Source: a virus. Taken from it: a stretch of 42,430 nucleotides of DNA. The stretch is taken from the IMG/VR virus record IMGVR_UViG_3300045988_023308; one strand, 5' to 3'. Shown here in pieces: positions 5,334 through 17,024 of the stretch (its first letter is position 1; each line of letters opens with the position of its first letter). The translations under genes and the position numbers were made by a program. The notes beneath the pieces are model-generated. The model had not been told where the DNA came from, did not search any database, and saw nothing but the letters and a program-made list of their open reading frames with translations.

Positions 5334-5536
5334 ACTTCCGCCTCCTCGTTGAAAACCGTCATGGCCTCGATGCACCGGGGGCAGTAGTAGTCCTTCCGGT
5401 CGTCCGCATCGATGCACAGCACCATAGGCTCCGCTATCGGTTGCCCGCACCGGGAACAATGGGGGAGCCGTGACATGTACTTATCCCAGGTGGATTCCCG
5501 CCGCTCTGCCTCCGTGTAAGGTGCGTTAATCTCCAT
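5327..5536 (-). CDS. Hypothetical Zn-ribbon protein
   Basis: MEINAPYTEAE... with CSRCGQP...CPRC. The start overlaps the upstream stop region. Confidence 0.55.
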   Translation of the reverse strand: MEINAPYTEAERRESTWDKYMSRLPHCSRCGQPIAEPMVLCIDADDRKDYYCPRCIEAMTVFNEEAEVW

Positions 5537-5885
5537 CGATTTCGCCCCATTCCAGCTTCTCCTGCGCCGCCCGTGCAATTCGGGCGAAGAATACATAATT
5601 CGGGGCCTTGTCCTTCCAGGCCGGGACAGTTCCGTGCAGGTAGCCGTTCAGCACCTTGTATTCGCCGTTTTGGAAGGCGTAATTGATGCATCTCCGGATT
5701 CTCCGTTCTACCGTCGGTGCGGGACAGCTGTACTTGACGGCAAGGGGCTTGTAGATATTCCGGTGCTCGCCGTTCATCCAGGCCAGGATCGCGTCTTCCA
5801 GCATGGAAAAGCCCAGCAGGTGCTCTCCTGCGCCAATGTCCAGCAGAATGTCGGTGATTGCCTTTTTTGCTTTCTTTTCGTCCAT
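5526..5885 (-). CDS. Stand-alone Spo0A C-terminal (DNA-binding) domain protein
   Basis: ITDILLDIGAGEHLLGFSMLEDAI...IYKPLAVKYSCPAPTVERRIRRCINYAF...APNYVFFARIA aligns by eye with the Spo0A effector domain ([24 protein letters not shown]...VERAIRHAIEVAW). No receiver domain is present. Confidence 0.75.
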   Translation of the reverse strand: MDEKKAKKAITDILLDIGAGEHLLGFSMLEDAILAWMNGEHRNIYKPLAVKYSCPAPTVERRIRRCINYAFQNGEYKVLNGYLHGTVPAWKDKAPNYVFFARIARAAQEKLEWGEIDGD

Positions 5886-5889
5886 GGAT

Positions 5890-6288
5890 TTATTCCTCAC
5901 TTTCGTTTTCAATAGGGTAGTACAGCCGGAAAATATACGACGCCGGGAAGACTGCGCCGCCCAGGCAGAAGGCTGCCGCCGCCCACACCGGGAAGGGGCT
6001 GAATGCGGAAAAACACAGCGTAGCCAGGCACACCAGGATATACCGCTTGATGGCCTCGGAAGACTTATATTCCCGCTCCATGTCCTCCCGCGCGGCCTTG
6101 TCCGCCGCCACCCGCTCGGCGATCAGCTCTTCCCGGCTGATTGCCTGGGCAGCTCTCACCGCCCTATGGGCGTTGATACCGGAGATCATTTCCGCCTCAT
6201 AGGCATCCAGTGCCCGATCTGCCGCCTGAGCGGCCTTTTCCTTCTGGTGGTACTCCAAATTTCGCTTGAAAATATCCTGAGTGTCCAT
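5890..6288 (-). CDS. Hypothetical membrane protein
   Basis: Charged helical N-terminal half, then hydrophobic segments ILVCLATLCFSAFSPFPVWAAAAFCLGGAVF. Confidence 0.55.
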   Translation of the reverse strand: MDTQDIFKRNLEYHQKEKAAQAADRALDAYEAEMISGINAHRAVRAAQAISREELIAERVAADKAAREDMEREYKSSEAIKRYILVCLATLCFSAFSPFPVWAAAAFCLGGAVFPASYIFRLYYPIENESEE

Positions 6289-8183: not shown

Positions 8184-8287
8184 TTTAACGGCTGGTGCCG
8201 TTGAATACAATCATATGTTTGGTTTACGCAAGCATATCACACTAATAGTACCATAAAACGGATATGAAAGAAAGAGGGAATATTAAA

Positions 8288-8680
8288 ATGAAGAGAATTG
8301 GGGCGTTGCTGCTTTGCCTGTGTCTGCTGCTGGCAGGCTGTGGAGCAAAAAAAGCGGAGACAATATCCCTGGTTGCGGGAGTACAGGGGCAATACGGCGA
8401 GCCGTTTACCATAAACAAGGGCACGGAATTTGAAGAAAATTATTTCATTTATCGTGTTCCGGCTGGAACATATACGGTGACAAACGTTGGAAAGTACCTA
8501 AACCAATTCACCGTTTTAGGCGAAACTGTATATATCACTGATGCCGGATGGGAAGAGCTATCCGATGTGTACTATGCTAAGTCACTAAAGCCTGGTGAAG
8601 CAGATACAGTAACTATCGAAGATGGGCAAATAATCGAAATTCACGAACCGGGAGAGTTCGAATTGGCAAAAGTAAAATAA
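8288..8680 (+). CDS. Lipoprotein (superinfection-exclusion candidate)
   Basis: MKRIGALLLCLCLLLAGCGAKK has a signal peptide with an LAGC lipobox. RBS AAGAGGGA. Confidence 0.7.
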   Translation: MKRIGALLLCLCLLLAGCGAKKAETISLVAGVQGQYGEPFTINKGTEFEENYFIYRVPAGTYTVTNVGKYLNQFTVLGETVYITDAGWEELSDVYYAKSLKPGEADTVTIEDGQIIEIHEPGEFELAKVK

Positions 8681-8872
8681 AAAGGTAACTTGTGTTTTGA
8701 ATTTGCCCGGCTCCTGGTGCCATCAGGAAGCCGGGCTGCCGCCGGTGTGGTGTGTCCCTTGCCGGTTGCTGCCATTACTGTATCACCTGAAATCGAAACT
8801 TGGAACGACCGGAAAGGGCAAATTTTAACGCAAACCATGTCAAATTGCTATGCAAAATAGGGGTGACGGATT

Positions 8873-9526
8873 TTGAAAATATCGCAGGAAGGAAAGAATT
8901 CGCAAGAAACGAAAGAATTTGTCGAAAGCTTATGGCAGGCCAGGCTAGATAAAAAGCGCACCTATCAGGAAATTTCCGACGAAACCCAAATACCATATCA
9001 CACGGTATGCCGCTTCTTCCAGGGCACGATGGACGATCCTGGGATTTACATCGTGAACGAACTGGCACATGCGTTAGACGTGCCCATGTTTGCGCCAGAT
9101 GCGCCGGACACCACCGCAGAGGTGGAGCGACTGGAATCCGAGCTGTGCCACAAGGATGAACTTCTCGCCGAAAAAGACAAGGCAATTGGAAGGCTGGTAG
9201 ACCGCAGTCGGATTATGCTAACCGGAATTGAATTCCGGGAAAACCGCCTGGCAGAAAAAGAAAATGAATTGCACACCGTGCAGGACGGGAGCAAGCCTCT
9301 AGTTTACGGACTTCTGGGTCTGTGCGTGATGCTGGCTGCCGTCCTGCTCGTTTATATGATCCTTGACGCAAGAAACCCGTATCAGGGATTGATACGGGTA
9401 GGAGAGGGGAGAGTATCCGTTGTCGTTTTGTTGGGCATTCTCGGCGTGACCATTGCGGTGTTTGTACTTATCTATATGGCCGGTGCGCATCGCTTTGTGC
9501 ACCGGGAGAATAAGGGGGAATCCTGA
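8873..9526 (+). CDS. Membrane-anchored HTH protein (N-terminal HTH, coiled coil, two C-terminal TM helices)
   Basis: TTG start. RTYQEISDETQIPYHTVCRFFQG, then an EVERLESELCHKDELLAEKDKAIGRL coil, then LVYGLLGLCVMLAAVLLVYMIL and VVVLLGILGVTIAVFVLIYMA. Confidence 0.55.
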   Translation: MKISQEGKNSQETKEFVESLWQARLDKKRTYQEISDETQIPYHTVCRFFQGTMDDPGIYIVNELAHALDVPMFAPDAPDTTAEVERLESELCHKDELLAEKDKAIGRLVDRSRIMLTGIEFRENRLAEKENELHTVQDGSKPLVYGLLGLCVMLAAVLLVYMILDARNPYQGLIRVGEGRVSVVVLLGILGVTIAVFVLIYMAGAHRFVHRENKGES

Positions 9527-10704
9527 TGCCACGAAAAGCCGCCTCCGGCTCCGGCACGATCCGGAAAAAGGAGATTGTCAGAAACGGCACGAAATACACC
9601 TATTGGGAAGGCCGCTACATGGCAGGACGGGACCCGTTGACCGGGAAGCCCGTCCGTAAATCCATCACCGGAAAAACCCAGAAGGAAGTCGCCCAGAAGC
9701 TCCGGGAGGTGGTTTCCTCCGGTGCCGACAGCGCATACAACCCCAATAGCGGTATCACCGTAGAAAAATGGCTGAATCTGTGGATAACCGACTACGCCGG
9801 GGAGAAGAAAGAAACCACCATAGCCAATTACAAAACCTGGATAGACTACCGTATTGCCCCGGCTCTGGGAAAAATAAAGCTGGAGCATTTGCAGACCAAT
9901 GATATTCAGCGATTCTATAACGGCCTGCGGGGCGATATTTCCGCAAAAACCGTCCGCAATATCCACGGTATTCTGCATAGCGCATTGGCACAGGCTGTGC
10001 GCAGCAGGATCATACCATTTAACCCGGCGGACGCTTGCGCCCTGCCAAGGGTGGAAAAGCGGGAGATAACTCCGGTTGTAGACGATGATCTCACGGCCTT
10101 TTTATCCGCTATCAAAGAGAGCAAATACGAAGATGTCTACTTGGTTGACGTATTCACGGGGATGCGTCAAGGGGAAATTTTGGGGCTGACGTGGGATTGT
10201 GTAGACTTTAAGCGGAACCGGCTATGTGTGAATAAGCAGCTGGCCAGGGTCAAGCGGGGGGGAGGAACCCATGTGCTCCGATCCACCAAAAAAGACAACA
10301 TCCGCTATATTGCGATTCCCGCTATGATTGCCGCCCGGCTGAAAACGATCCAGCAGCACCAACAGACCCTCGCTGCCGAAGACCCGTGCACATACCGAAA
10401 CGACATGAATCTTGTGTTTACGGACGATACCGGGAAGCACCTGGTTGGTATTACGGTTTACAAACACCTGAAAAAAATATTTGCCAAAATCGGAATACCG
10501 GAATCCAGATTCCACGATCTGCGCCATTCTTACGCCGTTGCACTTTTGGAGGCCGGTGTTGACGTGAAAACGCTGCAAACCAATCTAGGCCACTCGAACA
10601 TTTCGACCACCCTTGACGTGTATGCCCACGTTACCCAAAAGCTAAAAGCAGACAGTGCGGACAAGCTGGAAAAATTCGTTTCCGGGCTGCAAAAACAGCG
10701 CTAA
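9526..10704 (+). CDS. int: Tyrosine recombinase (phage integrase)
   Basis: SAM-like N-terminal domain plus catalytic motifs RFHDLRHSYAVALLEAG and LGHSNISTTLDVYAHV. TGATG overlap with the upstream gene. Adjacent to attP. Confidence 0.9.
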   Translation: MPRKAASGSGTIRKKEIVRNGTKYTYWEGRYMAGRDPLTGKPVRKSITGKTQKEVAQKLREVVSSGADSAYNPNSGITVEKWLNLWITDYAGEKKETTIANYKTWIDYRIAPALGKIKLEHLQTNDIQRFYNGLRGDISAKTVRNIHGILHSALAQAVRSRIIPFNPADACALPRVEKREITPVVDDDLTAFLSAIKESKYEDVYLVDVFTGMRQGEILGLTWDCVDFKRNRLCVNKQLARVKRGGGTHVLRSTKKDNIRYIAIPAMIAARLKTIQQHQQTLAAEDPCTYRNDMNLVFTDDTGKHLVGITVYKHLKKIFAKIGIPESRFHDLRHSYAVALLEAGVDVKTLQTNLGHSNISTTLDVYAHVTQKLKADSADKLEKFVSGLQKQR

Positions 10705-10806
10705 AAAACCTGGTTGGGGAAAACTATGGGGCAAACACCGTGAAATGAGATATTCAAAAATTGAATTTTCTTAACAAATCCATGATGGATATGAATAAGA
10801 ATACGG

Positions 10807-10843
10807 AAATCCCCTTGGAATCTGAACAATTCCAAGGGGATTT
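10807..10843. terminator. Perfect 15-bp hairpin next to the attP core
   Basis: AAATCCCCTTGGAAT-CTGAACA-ATTCCAAGGGGATTT. On the minus strand it lies 4 nt downstream of the tRNA-like CCA end. Confidence 0.55.
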
Positions 10844-10847
10844 GCTA

Positions 10848-10870
10848 TGGGGTGGATAATGGGACTCGAA
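10848..10870 (-). other. attP core: 23-nt copy of a tRNA-His-type 3' end
   Basis: The minus strand reads TTCGAGTCCCATTATCCACCCCA: T-loop, 3' T-stem, acceptor 3' strand, C73 and CCA. Compare the E. coli tRNA-His end TTCGAATCCCATTAGCCACCCCA. Similarity stops at the T-loop. Confidence 0.65.
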
Positions 10871-10982
10871 TTTTGCATATTCCGTCCATATAGTTATATT
10901 GCGTTATTTTCTTTCAAAAAACGTCCATATAATTATATTATGTATTGTGGATTGCAAATCCTGTTGGGGAAAAATATGGGGT

Positions 10983-11011
10983 AAAAAGCACCTCCTAATT
11001 TTTGGAGGTGC
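10983..11011 (-). terminator. Rho-independent terminator of the accessory operon
   Basis: The minus strand reads GCACCTCC-AAAAATTA-GGAGGTGC followed by TTTTT, 10 nt after the stop at 11022. Confidence 0.8.
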
Positions 11012-11021
11012 TTTGCTGGCA

Positions 11022-11357
11022 CTAAAATGTGATTAAGTTTTCAGCACGTTGCAGCAAAAGACGAAGATAGATTGGACATTCTCTTGATTCGGTACACCAA
11101 TTTTCGACCGTTCGCTTCGGAATGCAATACCGTTCTGCGAATGCCGCTTGACTCAGGCCAGAATGCGCAACAATTTCCCGGACGGTGCGGGTTGCGGCGG
11201 TATAGATGTCACGCAGGTTTTCCAGCCGTTCGGGCGGAATGGGCGCATCCGGTGCGTCGCCCCAAATGGTGGACAGCGCAATATCTGATATATAGGCGTC
11301 CGGGTCGTCATAATTTGCGGCTTCTGCCACGCAAAAATAATATTGTCTGTCAGTCAT
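11022..11357 (-). CDS. HTH DNA-binding protein (Aca-like/regulator candidate)
   Basis: ATG at 11357. C-terminal GLSQAAFAERYCIPKRTVENWCTESRECPIYLRLLL is an HTH. Confidence 0.55.
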   Translation of the reverse strand: MTDRQYYFCVAEAANYDDPDAYISDIALSTIWGDAPDAPIPPERLENLRDIYTAATRTVREIVAHSGLSQAAFAERYCIPKRTVENWCTESRECPIYLRLLLQRAENLITF

Positions 11358-11359
11358 TG

Positions 11360-11935
11360 TTATTTCCCTTTCTTCTTTAATGCCTTTTCCTTTTTCCTGC
11401 TTTCCCTTAACGCCGAAAGCCAATTCAGAAACTCGTCGTCCGGAACCTGCTGGGCAATGCGGCGCATTTCTTCCGCGGCTTCCCGTGTCTTAAATTCCCC
11501 GATAAAGTGTTGATGGCCGTTAAGAATTTTGTAGGTGAAAAACATCCCCCTAGCCGTTCTTTTCGATACGCCCGTGTGCGTGGAATCGGTGACGTTCCCC
11601 GCCGCCGTGATCCGTGCGTTATCGCATTTCCAGCAGCCACAACTTTTAGTAGTCCCACCCCTTAGGGACGTTGCGGGTACTAGTACAGTGTTTCCGCAGT
11701 CGCATTTGCAAAGCCAGACAAGCGATTTTGCGCGCTTTACGTCTGTTTCACAAATTGCAACCAGGCGGCCAAACCGTTGATCGCTTATGTCCCTGTTATC
11801 TGGCAGGCGGTTCCGTTGTATCAGGGCAAGGCGGCACTGTTCGGAGCAGGTACGCCGCTCATAATAGGAATCCGGGGCGGTAAATTCCGCCCCGCAGATT
11901 ACACAAATGCGGCGTTTTTCTTTGCCATTATTCAT
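11360..11935 (-). CDS. Zn-ribbon / AP2-type DNA-binding protein (HNH-associated module, no HNH motif)
   Basis: CVICG...CSEQC ribbon, a QRFGRLV...WLCKCDCG...TKSCGC module paralogous to 2801-3325, then GVSKRTARGMFFTYKILNGHQHFIGEFKTREAAEE (AP2-like). Confidence 0.55.
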   Translation of the reverse strand: MNNGKEKRRICVICGAEFTAPDSYYERRTCSEQCRLALIQRNRLPDNRDISDQRFGRLVAICETDVKRAKSLVWLCKCDCGNTVLVPATSLRGGTTKSCGCWKCDNARITAAGNVTDSTHTGVSKRTARGMFFTYKILNGHQHFIGEFKTREAAEEMRRIAQQVPDDEFLNWLSALRESRKKEKALKKKGK

Positions 11936-12239
11936 CTACAACCAGATCCCATTCATCACCGTTGTCCCGTTCTTCATCCGTCAGGGCAACCAGAACTTCG
12001 CCATCTTCGCCGCGGTTGGCGGTATCGACTTCATCCTGCCACCAGGAAATCAGGTTCTTGACATCTTCGTCGCTGGCTAGAATAGCTGTGCCGCCTTCTT
12101 CTGTTCCCTTGCCGAACTCCCGGGCAAAGCTGCCGTTTTCCAGGTCATCGAAGCAATCGGGTTCATAACCGGCATTCCAGCCACCCCGCCACAGCTTCAG
12201 GGTGATGTTGATGGTCTTGGTTTCAGTCTTGATAGTCAT
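11928..12239 (-). CDS. Small strongly acidic protein (anti-defence/DNA-mimic candidate)
   Basis: 103 aa with about 27 D/E against about 10 K/R. It is the first gene behind a consensus promoter. RBS AAAGGAG. Confidence 0.6.
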   Translation of the reverse strand: MTIKTETKTINITLKLWRGGWNAGYEPDCFDDLENGSFAREFGKGTEEGGTAILASDEDVKNLISWWQDEVDTANRGEDGEVLVALTDEERDNGDEWDLVVDE

Positions 12240-12287: not shown

Positions 12288-12316
12288 ATTATACCACTCA
12301 TTGGGTGGTATGTCAA
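12288..12316 (-). promoter_or_regulatory. Consensus sigma-70-type promoter with a palindromic spacer
   Basis: The minus strand reads TTGACA (12316-12311), 17 nt, TATAAT (12293-12288). The spacer contains ATACCAC...GTGGTAT. Confidence 0.7.
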
Positions 12317-12348: not shown

Positions 12349-12384
12349 AAAAATTTATCCCCAAGAGGTTGAACCCTTGGGGAT
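12349..12384 (-). terminator. Rho-independent terminator
   Basis: The minus strand reads CCCCAAGGG-TTCAA-CCTCTTGGGG (one bulge) followed by ATAAATTTTT, just after the stop at 12390. Confidence 0.65.
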
Positions 12385-12389
12385 AATAG

Positions 12390-12716
12390 TTAATCTTCTA
12401 ACCGCCGCATAATTGCGGCGTATTCCTTGGGATAAAGTGCCCGAACACAATCCATGTGTTCATCCAGTACATCCAAAAGCCGTGGCATTCCAGCCTTCCT
12501 TGCGGCTATGACAAACTCGCTTCCTCCGGTTTCTACCGGCTCCGGTGACATGGAATACATTTGCTCAGGGGCAGGATTAGCGGGATGGGAGCTTTCCGGT
12601 AACAGGTGATCCAGGATGGTGTAGCACGCTGCCATAAGCTGGCAGGCGGAAGCGGTAGGCTTTCGCATTGCCCGGCACTCTTCGATTGTTTCCAGTAAGT
12701 CCCGTTCCGTCAACAT
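12390..12716 (-). CDS. Hypothetical protein
   Basis: ATG at 12716, 6 nt after GGAGGA. MLTERDLLETIEECRAMRKPTASACQLMAACYTILDHLL... Confidence 0.55.
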   Translation of the reverse strand: MLTERDLLETIEECRAMRKPTASACQLMAACYTILDHLLPESSHPANPAPEQMYSMSPEPVETGGSEFVIAARKAGMPRLLDVLDEHMDCVRALYPKEYAAIMRRLED

Positions 12717-12718
12717 TG

Positions 12719-13078
12719 TTAATCCTCCATGCACCGCAGAGCCTTTTCTAAGGCTTCCCGTGTTCTGCTGTCCGGTGCATCGTCCATCATGCGCCGCAGT
12801 TTTTCGGCCATATCCTCCCGTGCATCCGCACGGCTATATCTGCCCATACTGTCACGCTTCCGGCCTCGGTAGCTTACACCGTCCCGTCCATAGTTGCCCA
12901 TAGCGTACCAGTCACCGGCGTTGCTGTACTCTCCGCCCATCATAATCTTGTCCAGATTTTTCAGGGTGTGGGTCAGTTTGTCCACGGTTTCCAGATCACC
13001 AGCGGATAACTCGCCTTTTTCGGCGATTTCGTCCAGTTCACGGCAAAGGGTATCACGCAATTCGTTCCAATGTTTCAT
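12719..13078 (-). CDS. Hypothetical protein (helical ends, Gly/Arg/Tyr-rich centre)
   Basis: MKHWNELRDTLCRELDEIAEKGELSAGDLETVDKLTHTLKNLDKI...YRGRKRDSMGRYSR. RBS GGAGGTGA. Confidence 0.6.
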   Translation of the reverse strand: MKHWNELRDTLCRELDEIAEKGELSAGDLETVDKLTHTLKNLDKIMMGGEYSNAGDWYAMGNYGRDGVSYRGRKRDSMGRYSRADAREDMAEKLRRMMDDAPDSRTREALEKALRCMED

Positions 13079-13094
13079 CGTGTTTTCACCTCCA

Positions 13095-13529
13095 TCACGC
13101 CACGCGTTCGATCATAAGATTTGCGTTCGCAACATTGATTGCCTGGGTGGATATGTTGCGCACAGACAGGCTGACACAGCAGCCACGGGGTACATCAACA
13201 AAGGCAGACGTTGCCACGATAAATGCGTTCTCCACAGCCGCAGGGGTCACGGTTGCCGTTGTGGTGGGCAAAGCCTCCCCGCCCAGAGCCAAGGCTACAC
13301 TGATAGCCCCGACAGTACCGCCCGTGGGAACGGCAATGTTTCCCCCAAACAGCACCCGATACCGGGCGATAGAGGAGCATCCATTGCAGATGCCCCGCAG
13401 CGTTACCAGCCCGGCTCCGTCACGGTGAACAACATACCCCCGGTTACACTTGACCGGTGTGTCGGTAAAAAGCACATTCTGCCCAGCTGCTACAGTCTGG
13501 GTAGCGTTTGCAGTAAGTTCAACCGCCAT
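13095..13529 (-). CDS. Hypothetical beta-rich Cys-containing protein
   Basis: ATG at 13529 after AGGAGG. MAVELTANATQTVAAGQNVLFTDTPVKCNRGYVVHRDGAG...VPRGCCVSLSVRNIS...NANLMIERVA. Confidence 0.6.
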   Translation of the reverse strand: MAVELTANATQTVAAGQNVLFTDTPVKCNRGYVVHRDGAGLVTLRGICNGCSSIARYRVLFGGNIAVPTGGTVGAISVALALGGEALPTTTATVTPAAVENAFIVATSAFVDVPRGCCVSLSVRNISTQAINVANANLMIERVA

Positions 13530-13540
13530 TTTGTACCTCC

Positions 13541-14338
13541 TTACGCTACATTCCCGCATCCGCAGCCGTAGCCGTTACCGCAGCAGTTGGGATTCGGAAC
13601 GACATAAGCCGGTCTTGCAGGGGGATTGTAATAGGCGAACTGGTTCTCGACGTAGCCCTTAATGGTAAGGTTCTGGGCGTTCTGACTGGCCGCAAGCTGT
13701 GCCATGAAAATCTGCTGATTCTGATCCGCAATCTTCTGGTCTTTCGCCGCCAACTCCTGGGCAGTAAGCCGCTGGTCGATGGAGCGGAAGCCGCAGTTCA
13801 TGGCATCGATGATGTCCCTGGTGGTGTTCTGGATGGTGTTCCGGGTGTCGCAACTCTGGGTAGCCAGATTGTAGTTCACGCCCTGGATCGCGGAACGGTT
13901 TTCGCAGCAGCACTCCTGATTTGCCATCTGCATCTGGAAAAGCTGCTGCATCAAGGCAGACTGCTGGTTGCACCGGGAAAGCTCCGCCGCCTGGAAACCA
14001 TTGCTGAGATTCTGGTTCACGTTTGCAAACCCATTCAGCATACCGGTGTTCATGGCATAAAAGCCGTCGCAAACGCCGTTGTTTACGCCGTCGATTTTTC
14101 GCTCGATGTTGGAAAAATCGGAAGCGAGCACATAGCCATCCACAACGCCAGCACCGTTCCTACCGCCGAAGCCACCGCCCCAGCCGTTGCCGCCCCAACC
14201 GAACATGCCGAAGATCAAGAAAACGATGATCCACGTTGCCCAGTCGCCGCCCCAGCCCATACCGCTGTTATAGCCGCCACCGTTTCCCTCGGTGCAAGCC
14301 CTGATATCGGCAGGGGAGAGGTCATTAGAAATACTCAT
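13541..14338 (-). CDS. Low-complexity membrane protein (Gly/Trp-rich TM region, N/Q-rich body, Cys/Gly-rich C-terminus)
   Basis: AGGAGG RBS. GWGGDWATWIIVFLIFGMFGWGGNGWGGGFGG, ...QECCCENR..., C-terminal NPNCCGNGYGCGCGNVA. Confidence 0.65.
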   Translation of the reverse strand: MSISNDLSPADIRACTEGNGGGYNSGMGWGGDWATWIIVFLIFGMFGWGGNGWGGGFGGRNGAGVVDGYVLASDFSNIERKIDGVNNGVCDGFYAMNTGMLNGFANVNQNLSNGFQAAELSRCNQQSALMQQLFQMQMANQECCCENRSAIQGVNYNLATQSCDTRNTIQNTTRDIIDAMNCGFRSIDQRLTAQELAAKDQKIADQNQQIFMAQLAASQNAQNLTIKGYVENQFAYYNPPARPAYVVPNPNCCGNGYGCGCGNVA

Positions 14339-14380
14339 GTTTTTGTTTCCTCCTTATAAGATAATTATTATAACAGCGTT

Positions 14381-14590
14381 TTACCGCTTGTTACCAAAAC
14401 CAAACATTCCCCGGAATTGGTCGAATTGTCCTTGCATTTGCTGTGCCATTTGCTGTGCCTGGTTAAGCTGCTGTTGACTGACCCGTCCGCTCTGCATCAA
14501 CTGGTTAAGCATCTGCTGGGGGTTCTGCCCCTGCATCTGCCGCATAAATTGCGGGAATTGTGTCATAATCTGCATAGGATTAGGAATCAT
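14381..14590 (-). CDS. Gln/Met-rich small protein
   Basis: MIPNPMQIMTQFPQFMRQMQGQNPQQMLNQLMQSGRVSQQQLNQAQQMAQQMQGQFDQF. RBS GGAGGGA. The start overlaps the upstream gene end. Confidence 0.6.
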   Translation of the reverse strand: MIPNPMQIMTQFPQFMRQMQGQNPQQMLNQLMQSGRVSQQQLNQAQQMAQQMQGQFDQFRGMFGFGNKR

Positions 14591-14987
14591 TGCGCTGTCC
14601 CTCCGTCATCTGCTTAATTTTTTCTTCCACAGCGGCGAGCCGTTGTTCAAAACCGGCGTTTACCGTCTCTGTGGTGTTTCCGGAATCCTTGATTTTGTAC
14701 TCATACGCCACAATCGGCATAGGCCGCCCGTTCATGTCGGCTCGTTTTTCGTAAAACACCGGCTTATTGCTGTCCCAGAGCCGGACAAAGCCATTGGCCG
14801 CTACCAAAAACGCCTCTGCTGCTGATTCCGACGCAACCCAAATCCGGTCATCCTGTGGGCTTTGCGGTGGTGCGGCGTTCTGCCCTATGGGCATCTGCTG
14901 GGCAGGCGGCTGCATCTGCGGGAAATAGTTCTGCGGATAGTACCCGCCGGGTTGATAGATTGGCTGCATATACGGATTTGCCATCAT
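14580..14987 (-). CDS. Protein with a Pro/Gln/Tyr-rich N-terminus and a globular C-terminal domain
   Basis: MMANPYMQPIYQPGGYYPQNYFPQMQPPAQQMPIGQNAAPPQSPQDD, then RIWVASESAAEAFLVAANGFVRLWDSNKPVFYEK. ATGA overlap with the upstream gene. Confidence 0.65.
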   Translation of the reverse strand: MMANPYMQPIYQPGGYYPQNYFPQMQPPAQQMPIGQNAAPPQSPQDDRIWVASESAAEAFLVAANGFVRLWDSNKPVFYEKRADMNGRPMPIVAYEYKIKDSGNTTETVNAGFEQRLAAVEEKIKQMTEGQRNDS

Positions 14988-15370
14988 TCACGCCTCCAAA
15001 AATAGATTGGGTTTTCGTCCATCGAATTCCAGGTGTCATACAATACGCCGTCAATCACGGTGACAACGTGGTTTTTCAGGGCAACGACATAGGTTCCAGT
15101 CGGGTACTCCTGGATAAAATCACCCACGGTGTAGCAGTCCGGACATTCTGCCGGAATCGATGCCCGGCGAAAGCCATGTTTCCGGAGGACTGCACCCCAT
15201 ACGTTGTTTGCACTGGGCATATCACATTGTGATATGCCTTCGATTGCTAGCATGACATATGCCTGATACCAGTCAATATCTAACGCCTTCGCAATCGCTC
15301 TTACAGCACAATCGCCGACTTTCGCCGTCCGGGGGTTCGGGTTGAAACTTCGAAAAATGCCCATAGGCAT
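14984..15370 (-). CDS. Hypothetical protein with a possible Cys/His/Asp triad (papain-like fold candidate)
   Basis: MPMGIFRSFNPNPRTAKVGDCAVRAIAKAL...KNHVVTVIDGVLYDTWNS. RBS GAAAGGGG. It is the first gene after the terminator at 15396-15437. Confidence 0.5.
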   Translation of the reverse strand: MPMGIFRSFNPNPRTAKVGDCAVRAIAKALDIDWYQAYVMLAIEGISQCDMPSANNVWGAVLRKHGFRRASIPAECPDCYTVGDFIQEYPTGTYVVALKNHVVTVIDGVLYDTWNSMDENPIYFWRRE

Positions 15371-15395
15371 CGCCCCTTTCTGCTTATAGCATAGC

Positions 15396-15437
15396 AAAAA
15401 ACCAGGCGAACGAATCATCATCGTTTCGCCTGGTTTT
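15396..15437 (-). terminator. Rho-independent terminator ending the late/lysis transcript
   Basis: The minus strand reads CCAGGCGAAACG-loop-CGTTCGCCTGG followed by TTTTTT. Confidence 0.8.
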
Positions 15438-15461
15438 CGTCAGAAAATCGTCACATTGTCG

Positions 15462-15698
15462 TCAAATAATCAGATCGTCCGGGAGTATGGCACTAAACCC
15501 CTTGACCGCATCATATTTCCGCTGCAATCGTCGGACGACCCTAGTTATCGTAGCTTGGGACACACTATATTTTTGTGATTGCCAGTATTGGCAGTGCCCG
15601 GCGGCACGGGTGGTTAAGACATCCTTTTCCAGCGGCGTAAGACACGCCAGCCTGTCAAACTCGTCAATGACCACCCGATTTAACCCGGGCTTGTCCAC
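15462..15698 (-). CDS. Small sigma-70 region-4-like HTH protein
   Basis: LTPLEKDVLTTRAAG...YSVSQATITRVVRRLQRKY. GTG start with a weak RBS, so the start is uncertain. Confidence 0.5.
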   Translation of the reverse strand: MDKPGLNRVVIDEFDRLACLTPLEKDVLTTRAAGHCQYWQSQKYSVSQATITRVVRRLQRKYDAVKGFSAILPDDLII

Positions 15699-15706
15699 CT
15701 ACCGCA

Positions 15707-15964
15707 TCAATCCTTTCTGGGGGTAATGTAATTCTGCGCCTGCTTGCTATCGGAGATACCGGCGGTGGTAGGATCATTGACCACACCCAGGATCACCAGC
15801 ACACCAAAGACGGCGTTGACCACGGCAATCAGCCGATTGCCGATGTCGCCAACATCCAGGGTGTAGCCGAACACGGCGGCCACGGTCTGGATCAGCAGCA
15901 GCACAGCGGGAATCACCGCCAGCCAGAAGTTTTTGTTTTTGAATCGTACAGTCCAGTTAATCAT
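15707..15964 (-). CDS. Holin (phi LC3-type)
   Basis: ATG at 15964 after AGGAGG. MINWTVRFKNKNFWLAVIPAVLLLIQTVAAVFGY... with two TM segments. Located in the lysis cassette. Confidence 0.75.
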   Translation of the reverse strand: MINWTVRFKNKNFWLAVIPAVLLLIQTVAAVFGYTLDVGDIGNRLIAVVNAVFGVLVILGVVNDPTTAGISDSKQAQNYITPRKD

Positions 15965-15984
15965 TTTATTTTCCTCCTTAAATT

Positions 15985-16290
15985 TTAGCCCAGCCCAAGC
16001 CGGGCAAGAATAAACCCTACGACAGCGGCTACGACGATGTAGATGACCCTTTCTACCACAGACTTCCACCGCTTACCGGGTTCGGATTTCAGCTCCTGCA
16101 CATCCGTACAAAGGCCGTCAACCTTCTCCCCGGTGGTCTCCACCTTCTCCGCCATGACGGCAACGGACGTTGCCAAGCGGTTTACTGCTTCCGTCTGCTT
16201 TTCCAGCGCTTCCAGCCGGTGGGAGTTGGACTTGCTCCGCTGCTCTACAGCGGAAATCCACTTAGTGATCTCAGCTTCTTCCATTGGCAT
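15985..16290 (-). CDS. XhlA-like membrane protein (lysis-associated)
   Basis: N-terminal coiled coil (ITKWISAVEQRSKSNSHRLEALEKQTEAV) plus a C-terminal TM segment IYIVVAAVVGFILARL. The start may be ATG at 16284. Confidence 0.6.
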   Translation of the reverse strand: MPMEEAEITKWISAVEQRSKSNSHRLEALEKQTEAVNRLATSVAVMAEKVETTGEKVDGLCTDVQELKSEPGKRWKSVVERVIYIVVAAVVGFILARLGLG

Positions 16291-16299
16291 ACTCCCTTC

Positions 16300-16917
16300 T
16301 CAGCCGTTCCACCGGCTGTACTTTCCATTGTCGATATGTACCCCCCAATCGTAGCGGCCTAGACCGCCACGTCCGGGCATCTTTTCTGCCTGCACCTGCT
16401 CGGCGATTTCTTGCAACCGGGCGGCGGAAATGTCACCGCCGATGGGAGCAAGGTCAATGGCCTGGCCGGTCAGATGCAGGGAGTTCCACACGCCGCCCAC
16501 ATCGGCATTGTGCTGTTTGCACCGCACACCCGAGTTGACGTTCAGGGGCACACCGGCACGGCGGCGGATTTCGTCCGCCAGCCGTACGGTTTCTTCCACC
16601 GGTTCCGCCGGGAAGCCGTTGCAATATTTGCCGCCGCACTGACACCGGAATTCCGCCCGCCGGAAGTGTTGAATATCGTCCCAGAAAGTCCCCGTCTCGG
16701 CGTTTTCCGTTTTGGTGGGCGTGTACATTCTCCCTGCCGCAACCGCCGCTAGGAGGGCGGCCTGGGTCTCCTGGCCTGGGTCTTCGTCCGCTTTTAGCCC
16801 CTCCGCCGCCTGGAAAAGCTTCACAGCCTGACGGGTCTGGTTTCCTGTGATCCCATCCGGTGCGCCCACCGGGTAGCCCAGATAGGCAAGCAAGCACTGC
16901 ACCTGTTTGGTGGTCAT
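16300..16917 (-). CDS. Endolysin: PG_binding_1 domain plus peptidase M15A (D-Ala-D-Ala carboxypeptidase-like)
   Basis: ATG at 16917 after AAGGAGG. QVQCLLAYLGYPVGAPDGITGNQTRQAVKLFQ, then SGVRCKQHNADVGGVWNSLHLTGQAIDL. Confidence 0.8.
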   Translation of the reverse strand: MTTKQVQCLLAYLGYPVGAPDGITGNQTRQAVKLFQAAEGLKADEDPGQETQAALLAAVAAGRMYTPTKTENAETGTFWDDIQHFRRAEFRCQCGGKYCNGFPAEPVEETVRLADEIRRRAGVPLNVNSGVRCKQHNADVGGVWNSLHLTGQAIDLAPIGGDISAARLQEIAEQVQAEKMPGRGGLGRYDWGVHIDNGKYSRWNG

Positions 16918-17024
16918 AGCCTGTCCTCCTTCCCCACTGCCAAAGCCACAAATCCGATGGACAGCCCCACCAGCATTGGCAGGGCTAGAACCACCAGCCA
17001 CAGCAGCTTAGCCGCCGTTCTCAT
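16914..17024 (-). CDS. Putative 36-aa single-TM protein (below ORF-track cutoff)
   Basis: MRTAAKLLWLVVLALPMLVGLSIGFVALAVGKEDRL. Its TGA overlaps the endolysin ATG (ATGA). The start lies inside the upstream gene end and the RBS is weak. Confidence 0.35.
   Translation of the reverse strand: MRTAAKLLWLVVLALPMLVGLSIGFVALAVGKEDRL

Follow-up and report, generated by a model that had tools for sequence, protein, structure and literature searches.

An optional gene block of gut phages with a predicted TNF/C1q-type jelly-roll protein and a predicted membrane-anchored Cys-rich protein, and its possible relation to the spore surface

Results

Composition and boundaries of the block

We analyzed a gene block on the minus strand of a viral DNA of 42,430 nucleotides (nt), the IMG/VR record IMGVR_UViG_3300045988_023308; "the window" below means this whole stretch at its full length. 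The window is a temperate siphophage-type genome of approximately 42 kb with the late operon on the minus strand. The operon runs from packaging genes near 35 kb through tail genes to a lysin gene (16300-17001) and two holin-type genes (15707-16290). The integrase gene is located on the plus strand at 9526-10704. A preliminary description of this DNA pointed to a cassette of four minus-strand genes in the lysogenic-conversion position and likened the composition of their products to that of spore-coat proteins.

All four open reading frames (ORFs), here named B, C, D, and E, are present where they were described. The genes themselves are real and conserved, and the extent of the cassette had to be revised, as gene A upstream and genes F and G downstream belong to it as well. 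In the 5' to 3' direction of the minus strand, the larger unit consists of a regulator gene R, a terminator, genes A-B-C (14381-15370), a dyad with a promoter-like site, genes D-E-F-G (12390-14338), and a second terminator. The stop codon of A overlaps the start codon of B (ATGA). The first intrinsic terminator (15396-15437, minus strand), already reported in the preliminary description, is confirmed (-24.6 kcal/mol, z = -6.55; a U6 run comes after it) and insulates the block from the lysis operon. The second one (12355-12386, minus strand) closes the operon; its 13-bp stem (-20.2 kcal/mol, z = -4.2) precedes a T-run.

None of the four initially described proteins matched Pfam, NCBIfam, or PADLOC, and the searches of these databases and of PHROG gave no match to virion, lysis, or defense families, in agreement with the preliminary description. 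In PADLOC-DB there were only noise-level matches (E >= 0.009), for D and R. Each of the four proteins does have a match to a PHROG family of unknown function, the E-values ranging from 1e-10 to 1e-52, and they are therefore products of genuine conserved phage genes rather than of chance ORFs. The unusual compositions of B, C, and D are likewise confirmed against the late proteins of the same phage, which contain 3.6% Gln and 1.1% Cys.

Gene E: a stand-alone jelly-roll protein

Gene E (13095-13529, minus strand) encodes a stand-alone protein of 144 amino acids (aa) that is predicted to form a TNF/C1q-type jelly roll resembling BxpB/ExsFA and the C-terminal domain (CTD) of BclA. The start at 13529 was placed correctly from the outset, and 22 homologues begin at the same Met. 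The CC pair attributed to the protein is present. Its initial classification as a low-complexity protein is not borne out: in an AlphaFold2 single-chain model built from a 67-sequence alignment, E is a compact all-beta domain with a predicted local distance difference test (pLDDT) value of 95.5.

A Foldseek comparison of this model with the PDB gave 116 matches at E <= 1e-3, from the TNF/C1q jelly-roll superfamily. The best of them (9h38, 8d02, 7r1m, 9h3d, and 1wck) have E-values from 2e-8 to 9e-6 and TM-scores (TMq) of 0.67-0.77. All the top matches are Bacillus exosporium proteins, namely the C-terminal domain of F-BclA (9h38, E = 2e-8), BxpB (8d02, TMq 0.77), ExsFA/ExsF (7r1m, 7r5i, 9h3d), and BclA-CTD (1wck, 3tyj), and they rank above 4-1BBL, EDA, and C1q. 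Among predicted viral structures, the best matches are stand-alone gut-phage proteins of 130-145 aa, some of them labelled "BclA protein"; these are followed by the C-terminal tips of collagen-like and tail-fiber proteins. As judged from the model, E belongs to the TNF/C1q/BclA-C structural superfamily. At the level of sequence, E has no match to Pfam BclA_C (PF18573) or to any NCBIfam family at E <= 1, and no sequence profile ties it to exosporium proteins.

E contains no Gly-X-Y (collagen-like) region. We considered E as a separate cap for a collagen-like tail fiber and rejected this, because the tail proteins of the window are free of Gly-X-Y runs. Homologues of E are numerous: 5,545 were found among protein clusters at 90% identity, and they form 665 clusters at 50% identity. 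The best 150 of these 665 clusters all contain short (69-196 aa), stand-alone proteins and no larger fusion. E is the best-conserved member of the block, with 78-99% identity among the 120 closest clusters.

Gene D: a predicted membrane anchor and a Cys-rich body

Gene D (13541-14338, minus strand; phrog_16490, E = 1.9e-41) encodes a predicted membrane-anchored Cys-rich protein, of which 7,882 homologues were found among protein clusters at 90% identity. The protein of the window contains 12 Cys residues, 13% Gly, and 12% Asn. The Gly/Trp-rich tract, the CCC motif, and the CCGNGYGCGCGN tail, all pointed out previously, are present.

An alignment of homologues, which are 250-280 residues long, reveals a conserved plan. 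The N-terminus is an acidic tail, approximately 30 residues long, in which FTMPVxP or ADIAAV often occurs. Next come a short hydrophobic core with Trp and Gly at its flanks, a linker rich in Gly, and an Asn/Gln-rich region with repeated GF motifs, and this Asn/Gln-rich body is read as helical from its sequence pattern. Further on are CCC and more conserved Cys residues, a coiled-coil-like stretch (...LQAENQSLKLAASQAAQN...), a Pro-rich peptide (...RPVPAYxVPNP...), and a Cys/Gly tail. C143-145 (the CCC motif), C163, W48, and G49 are invariant. In 35 homologues the N-terminal tail has on average 0.4 Lys+Arg and 2.7 Asp+Glu, and the 30 residues past the hydrophobic core have 1.4 Lys+Arg; this charge pattern weakly favors an N-out/C-in topology. 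Read by eye, with no signal-peptide predictor, the translations show a hydrophobic segment in D alone among the block proteins and no N-terminal hydrophobic signal in A, B, C, E, F, or G.

No Pfam, NCBIfam, or PDB family matched D in profile searches that included its homologues. The proposed likeness of D to YjcZ-type sporulation peptides did not hold: none of 35 homologues matches TIGR01732 at E <= 1, and D of the window has no NCBIfam match. The same 35 homologues gave no match at this threshold to TIGR03720, the Pro-rich exosporium leader peptide by which BxpB/ExsFA binds a partner protein. Thus we rejected D both as a YjcZ-like protein and as a carrier of an exosporium leader.

In two loci (L065 and L066, 9743-9997) D is shortened to 237 aa and separated from E by an extra ORF of 84 aa; this lineage may have a D divided into two genes.

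Conservation and mobility of the block

Using E as a query we took 58 loci from genome contigs and obtained more by exact protein look-ups; 66 loci were compared by tblastn. The co-conservation of the genes, for which the preliminary description had recommended a survey of neighborhoods, is evident: the order A-B-(C)-D-E-F-(G) is kept on the same strand in about 40 of the 66 loci. D is found in 60 loci and E in all 66, the latter count being expected since the loci were fetched through homologues of E or D. Identities of the cassette proteins between loci fall to 25-60%.

The neighbors of the block vary. Each of the late structural proteins of the window is common to only 0-4 of the loci. The adjacent lysins differ by locus (SH3_3, Amidase_2, Peptidase_M15_3), the nearby integrase is a tyrosine or a serine recombinase, and the tail modules include collagen-like fibers, a GDSL lipase, or a polyvalent protein of 3,752 aa. 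The majority of the loci have the block between the lysis genes and the integrase. In an integrated prophage on a 210-kb contig (L068) it is the final phage segment, with host genes for an amidohydrolase, a MatE transporter, and an acetate kinase beyond it. The lysogenic-conversion position suggested earlier is thereby borne out. A different arrangement occurs in Dulem virus 35 (PP511522.1, 3800-7830), where the cassette lies in the head module, between the portal/MuF and scaffold/capsid genes, and an XhlA-like gene stands between A and B.

The closest isolated relative of the window phage that we found is Flavonifractor phage Chenonceau (ON453904.1). The two phages share the major capsid protein (66% identity), portal (40%), tape measure (37%), scaffold, MuF, and major tail proteins, and this relationship suggests a host from Oscillospiraceae for the window phage. 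None of genes A-G was found in Chenonceau. The variable neighbors of the block together with its absence from Chenonceau show that it is a mobile optional module and not part of one virion design. Situated at the prophage end and provided with promoter-like sites and terminators of its own, it is moron-like. As a separate observation, the lysis-integrase junction of Chenonceau contains different cargo on the opposite strand.

Related loci in metagenome-assembled genomes mostly come from Oscillospirales or Lachnospirales. Four variants of low GC content (L025, L037, L048, and L053, at approximately 8,200-11,450 in each) comprise a B-like gene, a C-like gene, D, E, an F-like gene, and then a gene for an HExxH metalloprotease (phrog_87/phrog_1233); no homologue of A was detected in them. 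In the first three, the cassette follows straight after the tail genes, with replication genes (RuvC-like, dUTPase, NrdG/NrdD-like) on the opposite strand, and in L053 it adjoins host genes.

One D-E-F copy (L036, 8900-10812), in which E and F are intact, is chromosomal by its context (Oscillospiraceae), and a sigK/sigE-like sigma gene is located 7 kb upstream of it. We rejected this copy as a domesticated chromosomal set near sigK, because the 5' end of D is truncated by a fragment of an ISL3-family transposase, which makes the copy a decayed remnant.

Genes A, B, C, F, and G

Gene A (14984-15370, minus strand; phrog_3754, E = 1.6e-33) encodes a putative papain-fold cysteine peptidase of 128 aa. 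Residues C21, H101, and D112 are invariant in 60 sequences. In the AlphaFold2 model (pLDDT 93.3) a helix of residues 21-29 begins at the Cys, and His101 and Asp112 are carried by strands of the beta-sheet that follows, which is a papain-like arrangement. The sole match among solved structures is weak (Foldseek PDB, E = 0.02, TMq 0.45) and is to Josephin-2, a papain-like deubiquitinase; there was no Pfam match and no PDB match by sequence. Outside the cassette, homologues of A occur in Bacillus Tsamsa-like, Geobacillus, and Lak phages, and in Bacillus phages they are sometimes annotated as "putative peptidase". A role of A as a Bacillus Tgl-like transglutaminase that cross-links Gln-rich partners was rejected, since Tgl is absent from the best 50 Foldseek PDB matches and there is no sequence match.

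Gene B (14580-14987, minus strand; phrog_21718) encodes a protein with a Pro/Gln/Tyr-rich N-terminus (11 Pro, 10 Gln, 5 Met, and 5 Tyr in residues 1-46) and a small conserved beta-rich core, for which an alignment of 34 homologues gives the pattern IWV..E..A..Y.V.PN..V.LWD....FY.K..D..G.P. It has no Pfam or PDB match. The product of gene C (14381-14590, minus strand; phrog_22984, E = 5.8e-19) is a protein of 69 aa that contains 30% Gln and 14.5% Met and whose sequence pattern reads as helical. The Gln/Met richness ascribed to it is confirmed; it is not merely a low-complexity peptide, as its homologues align over the whole length. No family or PDB match to C was obtained by profile search.

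Gene F (12719-13078, minus strand; phrog_28802) is colinear in 41 of the 66 loci. Its product has conserved ends, both probably helical, and a low-complexity middle rich in Gly, Tyr, Ser, and Arg (...RDSMGRYSR...); profile searches gave no family match. Gene G (12390-12716, minus strand; 108 aa, read as helical) was found in 14 loci, and the gene that fills this last position varies between loci. Other loci have a DUF7841 protein or an HExxH protease at this place. We rejected the assignment of G of the window to DUF7841, since only the seventh gene of the L061 type matches that family. PDB sequences gave nothing above noise in profile searches with A, B, D, F, and G, and neither did Pfam with the homologues of D, F, and G.

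In seven loci without a terminator before A (L001, L005, L020, L022, L026, L027, and L034), an ORF of about 45-60 aa, e.g., ...LVSLGFTQQMAEDIIWAYQDDLPGLKAYV..., overlaps or abuts the start of A. Its product is probably helical, and it may be another optional member of the cassette.

Regulator R and control elements

Gene R (15462-15698, minus strand) is the last gene of the lysis operon and encodes a helix-turn-helix (HTH) protein of 78 aa. The only HTH match of R in the window is a weak one to Trp_repressor (E = 0.002). Among 23 ORFs at the same position in other loci, eight match Sigma70_r4, seven match Sigma70_r4_2, and five match GerE/LuxR (E <= 0.01). The presence of a sigma-70 region-4 or GerE/LuxR-type HTH at this position extends to the very distant L053.

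Three direct TGACGA boxes with 11 bp spacing (15437-15464, minus strand) lie between the stop codon of R and the terminator, an arrangement that is unique in the window and expected there 0.01 times by chance. L003 and L004 have TGACA-type repeats at the same site beside an R protein that is 43% identical; the direct-repeat boxes near the A promoter thus vary between loci along with the regulator. The TGACGA boxes are probably candidate binding sites of the adjacent regulator R and not Spo0A boxes. Their identification as Spo0A (0A) boxes was rejected, because TGNCGAA is not enriched in the window (32 found vs 27.7 expected) and the repeats in L003 and L004 are different.

Directly past the T-run of the terminator, an extended -10-like box, TGcTATAAG (15383-15391, minus strand), is read from the sequence, and a ribosome-binding site stands between it and gene A. 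The box has no -35 element because the terminator stem fills that position. TGn-xAxAAT boxes directly past a terminator occur in eight loci, and a comparable terminator upstream of A is found in 21 of 39 distinct loci.

Another element, the dyad TAACAaGCG/CGCTGTTA (14367-14394, minus strand; -9.7 kcal/mol), precedes D and overlaps a promoter-like GTAACA-16-TG-TATAAT. About 20 of 42 loci, among them L018, L020, L023, L033, L034, L038, L042, L059, and L061, have a GC-cored perfect palindrome at a distance of 30-45 nt upstream of D, flanked by A- and T-runs and followed by TTTGnnATAAAT. The sequence of the palindrome varies and its symmetry is kept (e.g., CGTGGCCACG, GCGGCCGC, CTGGCCAG, and GTGCGCAC). 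The dyad could be an operator within a promoter or an intercistronic hairpin/attenuator.

Other genes of the window

The preliminary description also reported a stand-alone Spo0A domain gene. This gene is real and is located at 5526-5912 on the minus strand; its product has the C-terminal, DNA-binding domain of Spo0A (PF08769, E = 2.8e-13, above the Pfam cut-off). Gut phages are known to include some with spo0A homologues (bioRxiv 10.1101/2023.01.19.524802).

Directly beyond the cassette terminator, a perfect TTGACA-17-TATAAT promoter with an upstream TG (12288-12316, minus strand) heads an unrelated unit H-I-J (11022-12239, minus strand). H is a protein of 103 aa with no homologue in any of the loci compared, I is HNH-endonuclease-like (phrog_374), and J is HTH-like.

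Discussion

Comparison with known systems

Two known kinds of elements are recognizable here, a phage moron and a protein of the BclA/BxpB fold; the cassette as a whole is without a described counterpart. The block shares with morons and lysogenic-conversion cassettes of temperate Gram-positive phages the position between lysis genes and integrase, the optional presence, the flanking terminators, and the internal promoter-like sites. However, known morons usually consist of one or two genes, which encode toxins, immune-evasion factors, or superinfection exclusion (Sie) proteins, whereas the block has 7-8 genes with its own regulator and no recognizable effector.

BxpB/ExsFA and the CTDs of BclA and F-BclA, which come from exosporium proteins of the Bacillus cereus group, are TNF/C1q jelly rolls of about 140 residues, as is the predicted structure of E. 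BxpB/ExsFA has the highest TM-scores with the E model (0.75-0.77) and is a stand-alone protein, as E is. The exosporium proteins BxpB/ExsFA, BclA, and F-BclA are not known to have signal peptides, and E shows none in its translation. Unlike them, E is encoded by phages of Clostridia and not in a chromosomal sporulation regulon. In Bacillus, the partners of these exosporium proteins are Cys-rich proteins of the basal layer and Pro-rich leader peptides that are processed at their N-terminus (PMC12357932); ExsF trimers bind the Pro-rich leaders in inter-subunit clefts (PMC12357932). In contrast to these partners, D has no leader motif and has a predicted membrane anchor.

The likeness of D to YjcZ (TIGR01732), ExsY/CotY, and CdeC/CdeM is only compositional and concerns the hydrophobic core flanked by Gly and aromatic residues and the Cys-rich motifs. 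The YjcZ proteins are tiny Gly-rich transmembrane peptides, whereas D has 250-280 residues and a long body read as helical. A shares the invariant Cys/His/Asp layout with papain-like peptidases such as the Josephin deubiquitinases; it is about 125 residues long, belongs to no Pfam family, and has a weak structural match. We searched the literature on DUF7841, on phage-encoded BclA/BxpB-like proteins, and on exosporium-related conversion and found nothing relevant. A 2011 paper that described isopeptide bonds between BclA and BxpB has been retracted and is given no weight here.

A possible intracellular assembly

The insulated optional operon, the invariant D-E pair, the predicted papain-like fold of A, the low-complexity proteins, and the absence of secretion signals led us to infer an assembly built inside the cell. 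D would be inserted into the cytoplasmic membrane by its short hydrophobic segment with the acidic N-terminal tail outward. Its long, probably helical, Cys-knotted body would then be in the cytoplasm, probably as a trimeric stalk. E would form a TNF/C1q-type trimer like BxpB/ExsFA and the BclA head and dock on D, possibly on the Pro-rich C-terminal peptide of D, by analogy with ExsF and the Pro-rich leaders. A, with its predicted papain fold, would process a partner, a task that in the low-GC variants may fall to the HExxH protease, which is encoded at the opposite end of the cassette. The matrix or scaffold would be formed by B, C, and F. Such an assembly would yield a fiber- or coat-like layer that is tethered to the membrane, can be cross-linked by disulfides, and is made without secretion. 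The nearest known process is the one that builds the nap and basal layer of the exosporium in the cytoplasm of the mother cell. Insertion into the mother-cell membrane would also bring a protein to the outer forespore membrane, where it would face the coat.

Among the fates of such an assembly we tentatively rank first the one in which it ends on the spore of the lysogen and remodels the spore surface, because of its likeness to the exosporium nap, the Clostridia hosts, the phage's own Spo0A_C gene, and the GerE/LuxR-like regulators. Its more specific form is a portable kit of a regulator, a protease, matrix proteins, a stalk (D), and a head (E) that dresses the spores of the lysogen by adding an exosporium-like nap or appendage; that we regard as rather doubtful. 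The involvement of the spore surface is a live hypothesis and not a finding. The spore-coat proposal of the preliminary description gains solid support from the predicted fold of E, which is nearest to BxpB/ExsFA and BclA, and loses the YjcZ likeness and the linkage with Spo0A.

A number of observations weigh against spore-surface remodeling. By sequence, no protein of the block matches a spore-coat or exosporium family of Pfam or NCBIfam. The identity of E to exosporium proteins is only 10-17%, and its fold is generic, the same fold capping fibers of many viruses. The link between the Spo0A_C gene and the cassette is not conserved: we found three phage records with Spo0A_C, none of which bears D or carries the cassette, and we rejected this linkage. 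Some contigs with cassette variants were binned as Bacilli, Anaeroplasmatales, or Mollicutes, which include lineages not known to sporulate, although the binning of phages is unreliable; in addition, the variants found after tail genes belong to larger phages with no integrase in view. The promoter-like sites are of the sigma-A type, not of the sigma-E/sigma-K type, and are consensus matches only. The layout of the A promoter suggests that an activator is needed, and the placement of R in the lysis operon would fit very late lytic expression.

Alternative explanations

The last two points lead to an alternative in which the block has a very late lytic membrane function, as an egress or lysis accessory or as an assembly platform, and is switched on by R made together with the holins. 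R starts 8 nt past the holin gene with no terminator between them, and the repeat boxes at about -59, -70, and -81 from an extended -10 without a -35 make an activator-dependent promoter layout. The variant cassettes that follow tail genes in phages without an integrase in view would agree with such a role, as would the block of Dulem virus 35, with its XhlA-like gene between A and B inside the head module. However, Chenonceau has its own holin, endolysin, and XhlA-like genes and yet no block, the promoter-like site of D has no obvious need of an activator, and nothing in the block is like a holin, an endolysin, or a spanin. We consider this function improbable. An optional virion accessory seems to us just as improbable: here E would be a trimeric decoration of the head or tail or a fiber tip, D a stalk or an ejection protein, and A a maturation protease. 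TNF/C1q-like domains do tip collagen-like and tail-fiber proteins in many viruses, the block of Dulem virus 35 stands between portal/MuF and scaffold/capsid genes, and the block proteins are without signal peptides, like virion proteins. Nevertheless, the block pairs with unrelated tail and head modules, is absent from Chenonceau despite the homologous capsid and tail, and is insulated by terminators from the structural operon. E itself is far more conserved than usual receptor-binding tips and has no N-terminal attachment domain, and the window phage has no collagen-like fiber for it to cap.

Superinfection exclusion or another form of defense is also unlikely in our view, if less so than the two roles just discussed. 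According to this explanation, D and its cytoplasmic partners at the inner face of the membrane block DNA entry or abort infection by other phages. The prophage end is a known hotspot for such cargo, D has a predicted membrane anchor, and related phages may have or lack the block, which is equipped with promoter-like sites and terminators of its own. On the other hand, the PADLOC matches are at noise level only, and effector domains, such as those of nucleases, ATPases, or NTPases, are missing from the block. Each known Sie system consists of one small membrane protein and not of a set of seven genes, and the very strong conservation of E is unusual for arms-race genes.

Conclusions

The D and E families are very large, have no annotated function, and occur in phages mainly of the dominant spore-forming Firmicutes of the gut. 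The cassette is very widespread among the uncharacterized phages of the gut. Spores are the route of these bacteria between hosts. A block that altered the spore surface, or that built some new structure inside the cell, would tie phage carriage to transmission and colonization. If it acts as a kit for dressing spores, it would alter spore adhesion, germination, or transmission between hosts and would represent a new class of lysogenic conversion with no sequence kinship to the Bacillus exosporium proteins. Even in the case of a role in exclusion or egress, it would still be an eight-part system without a described counterpart. So far, the sporulation functions found to be phage-encoded comprise chromosome partitioning, DNA repair, functions of the cell wall, and regulators of transcription (Schwartz et al., bioRxiv 10.1101/2023.01.19.524802); if the spore-surface hypothesis is true, structural spore genes would join them.

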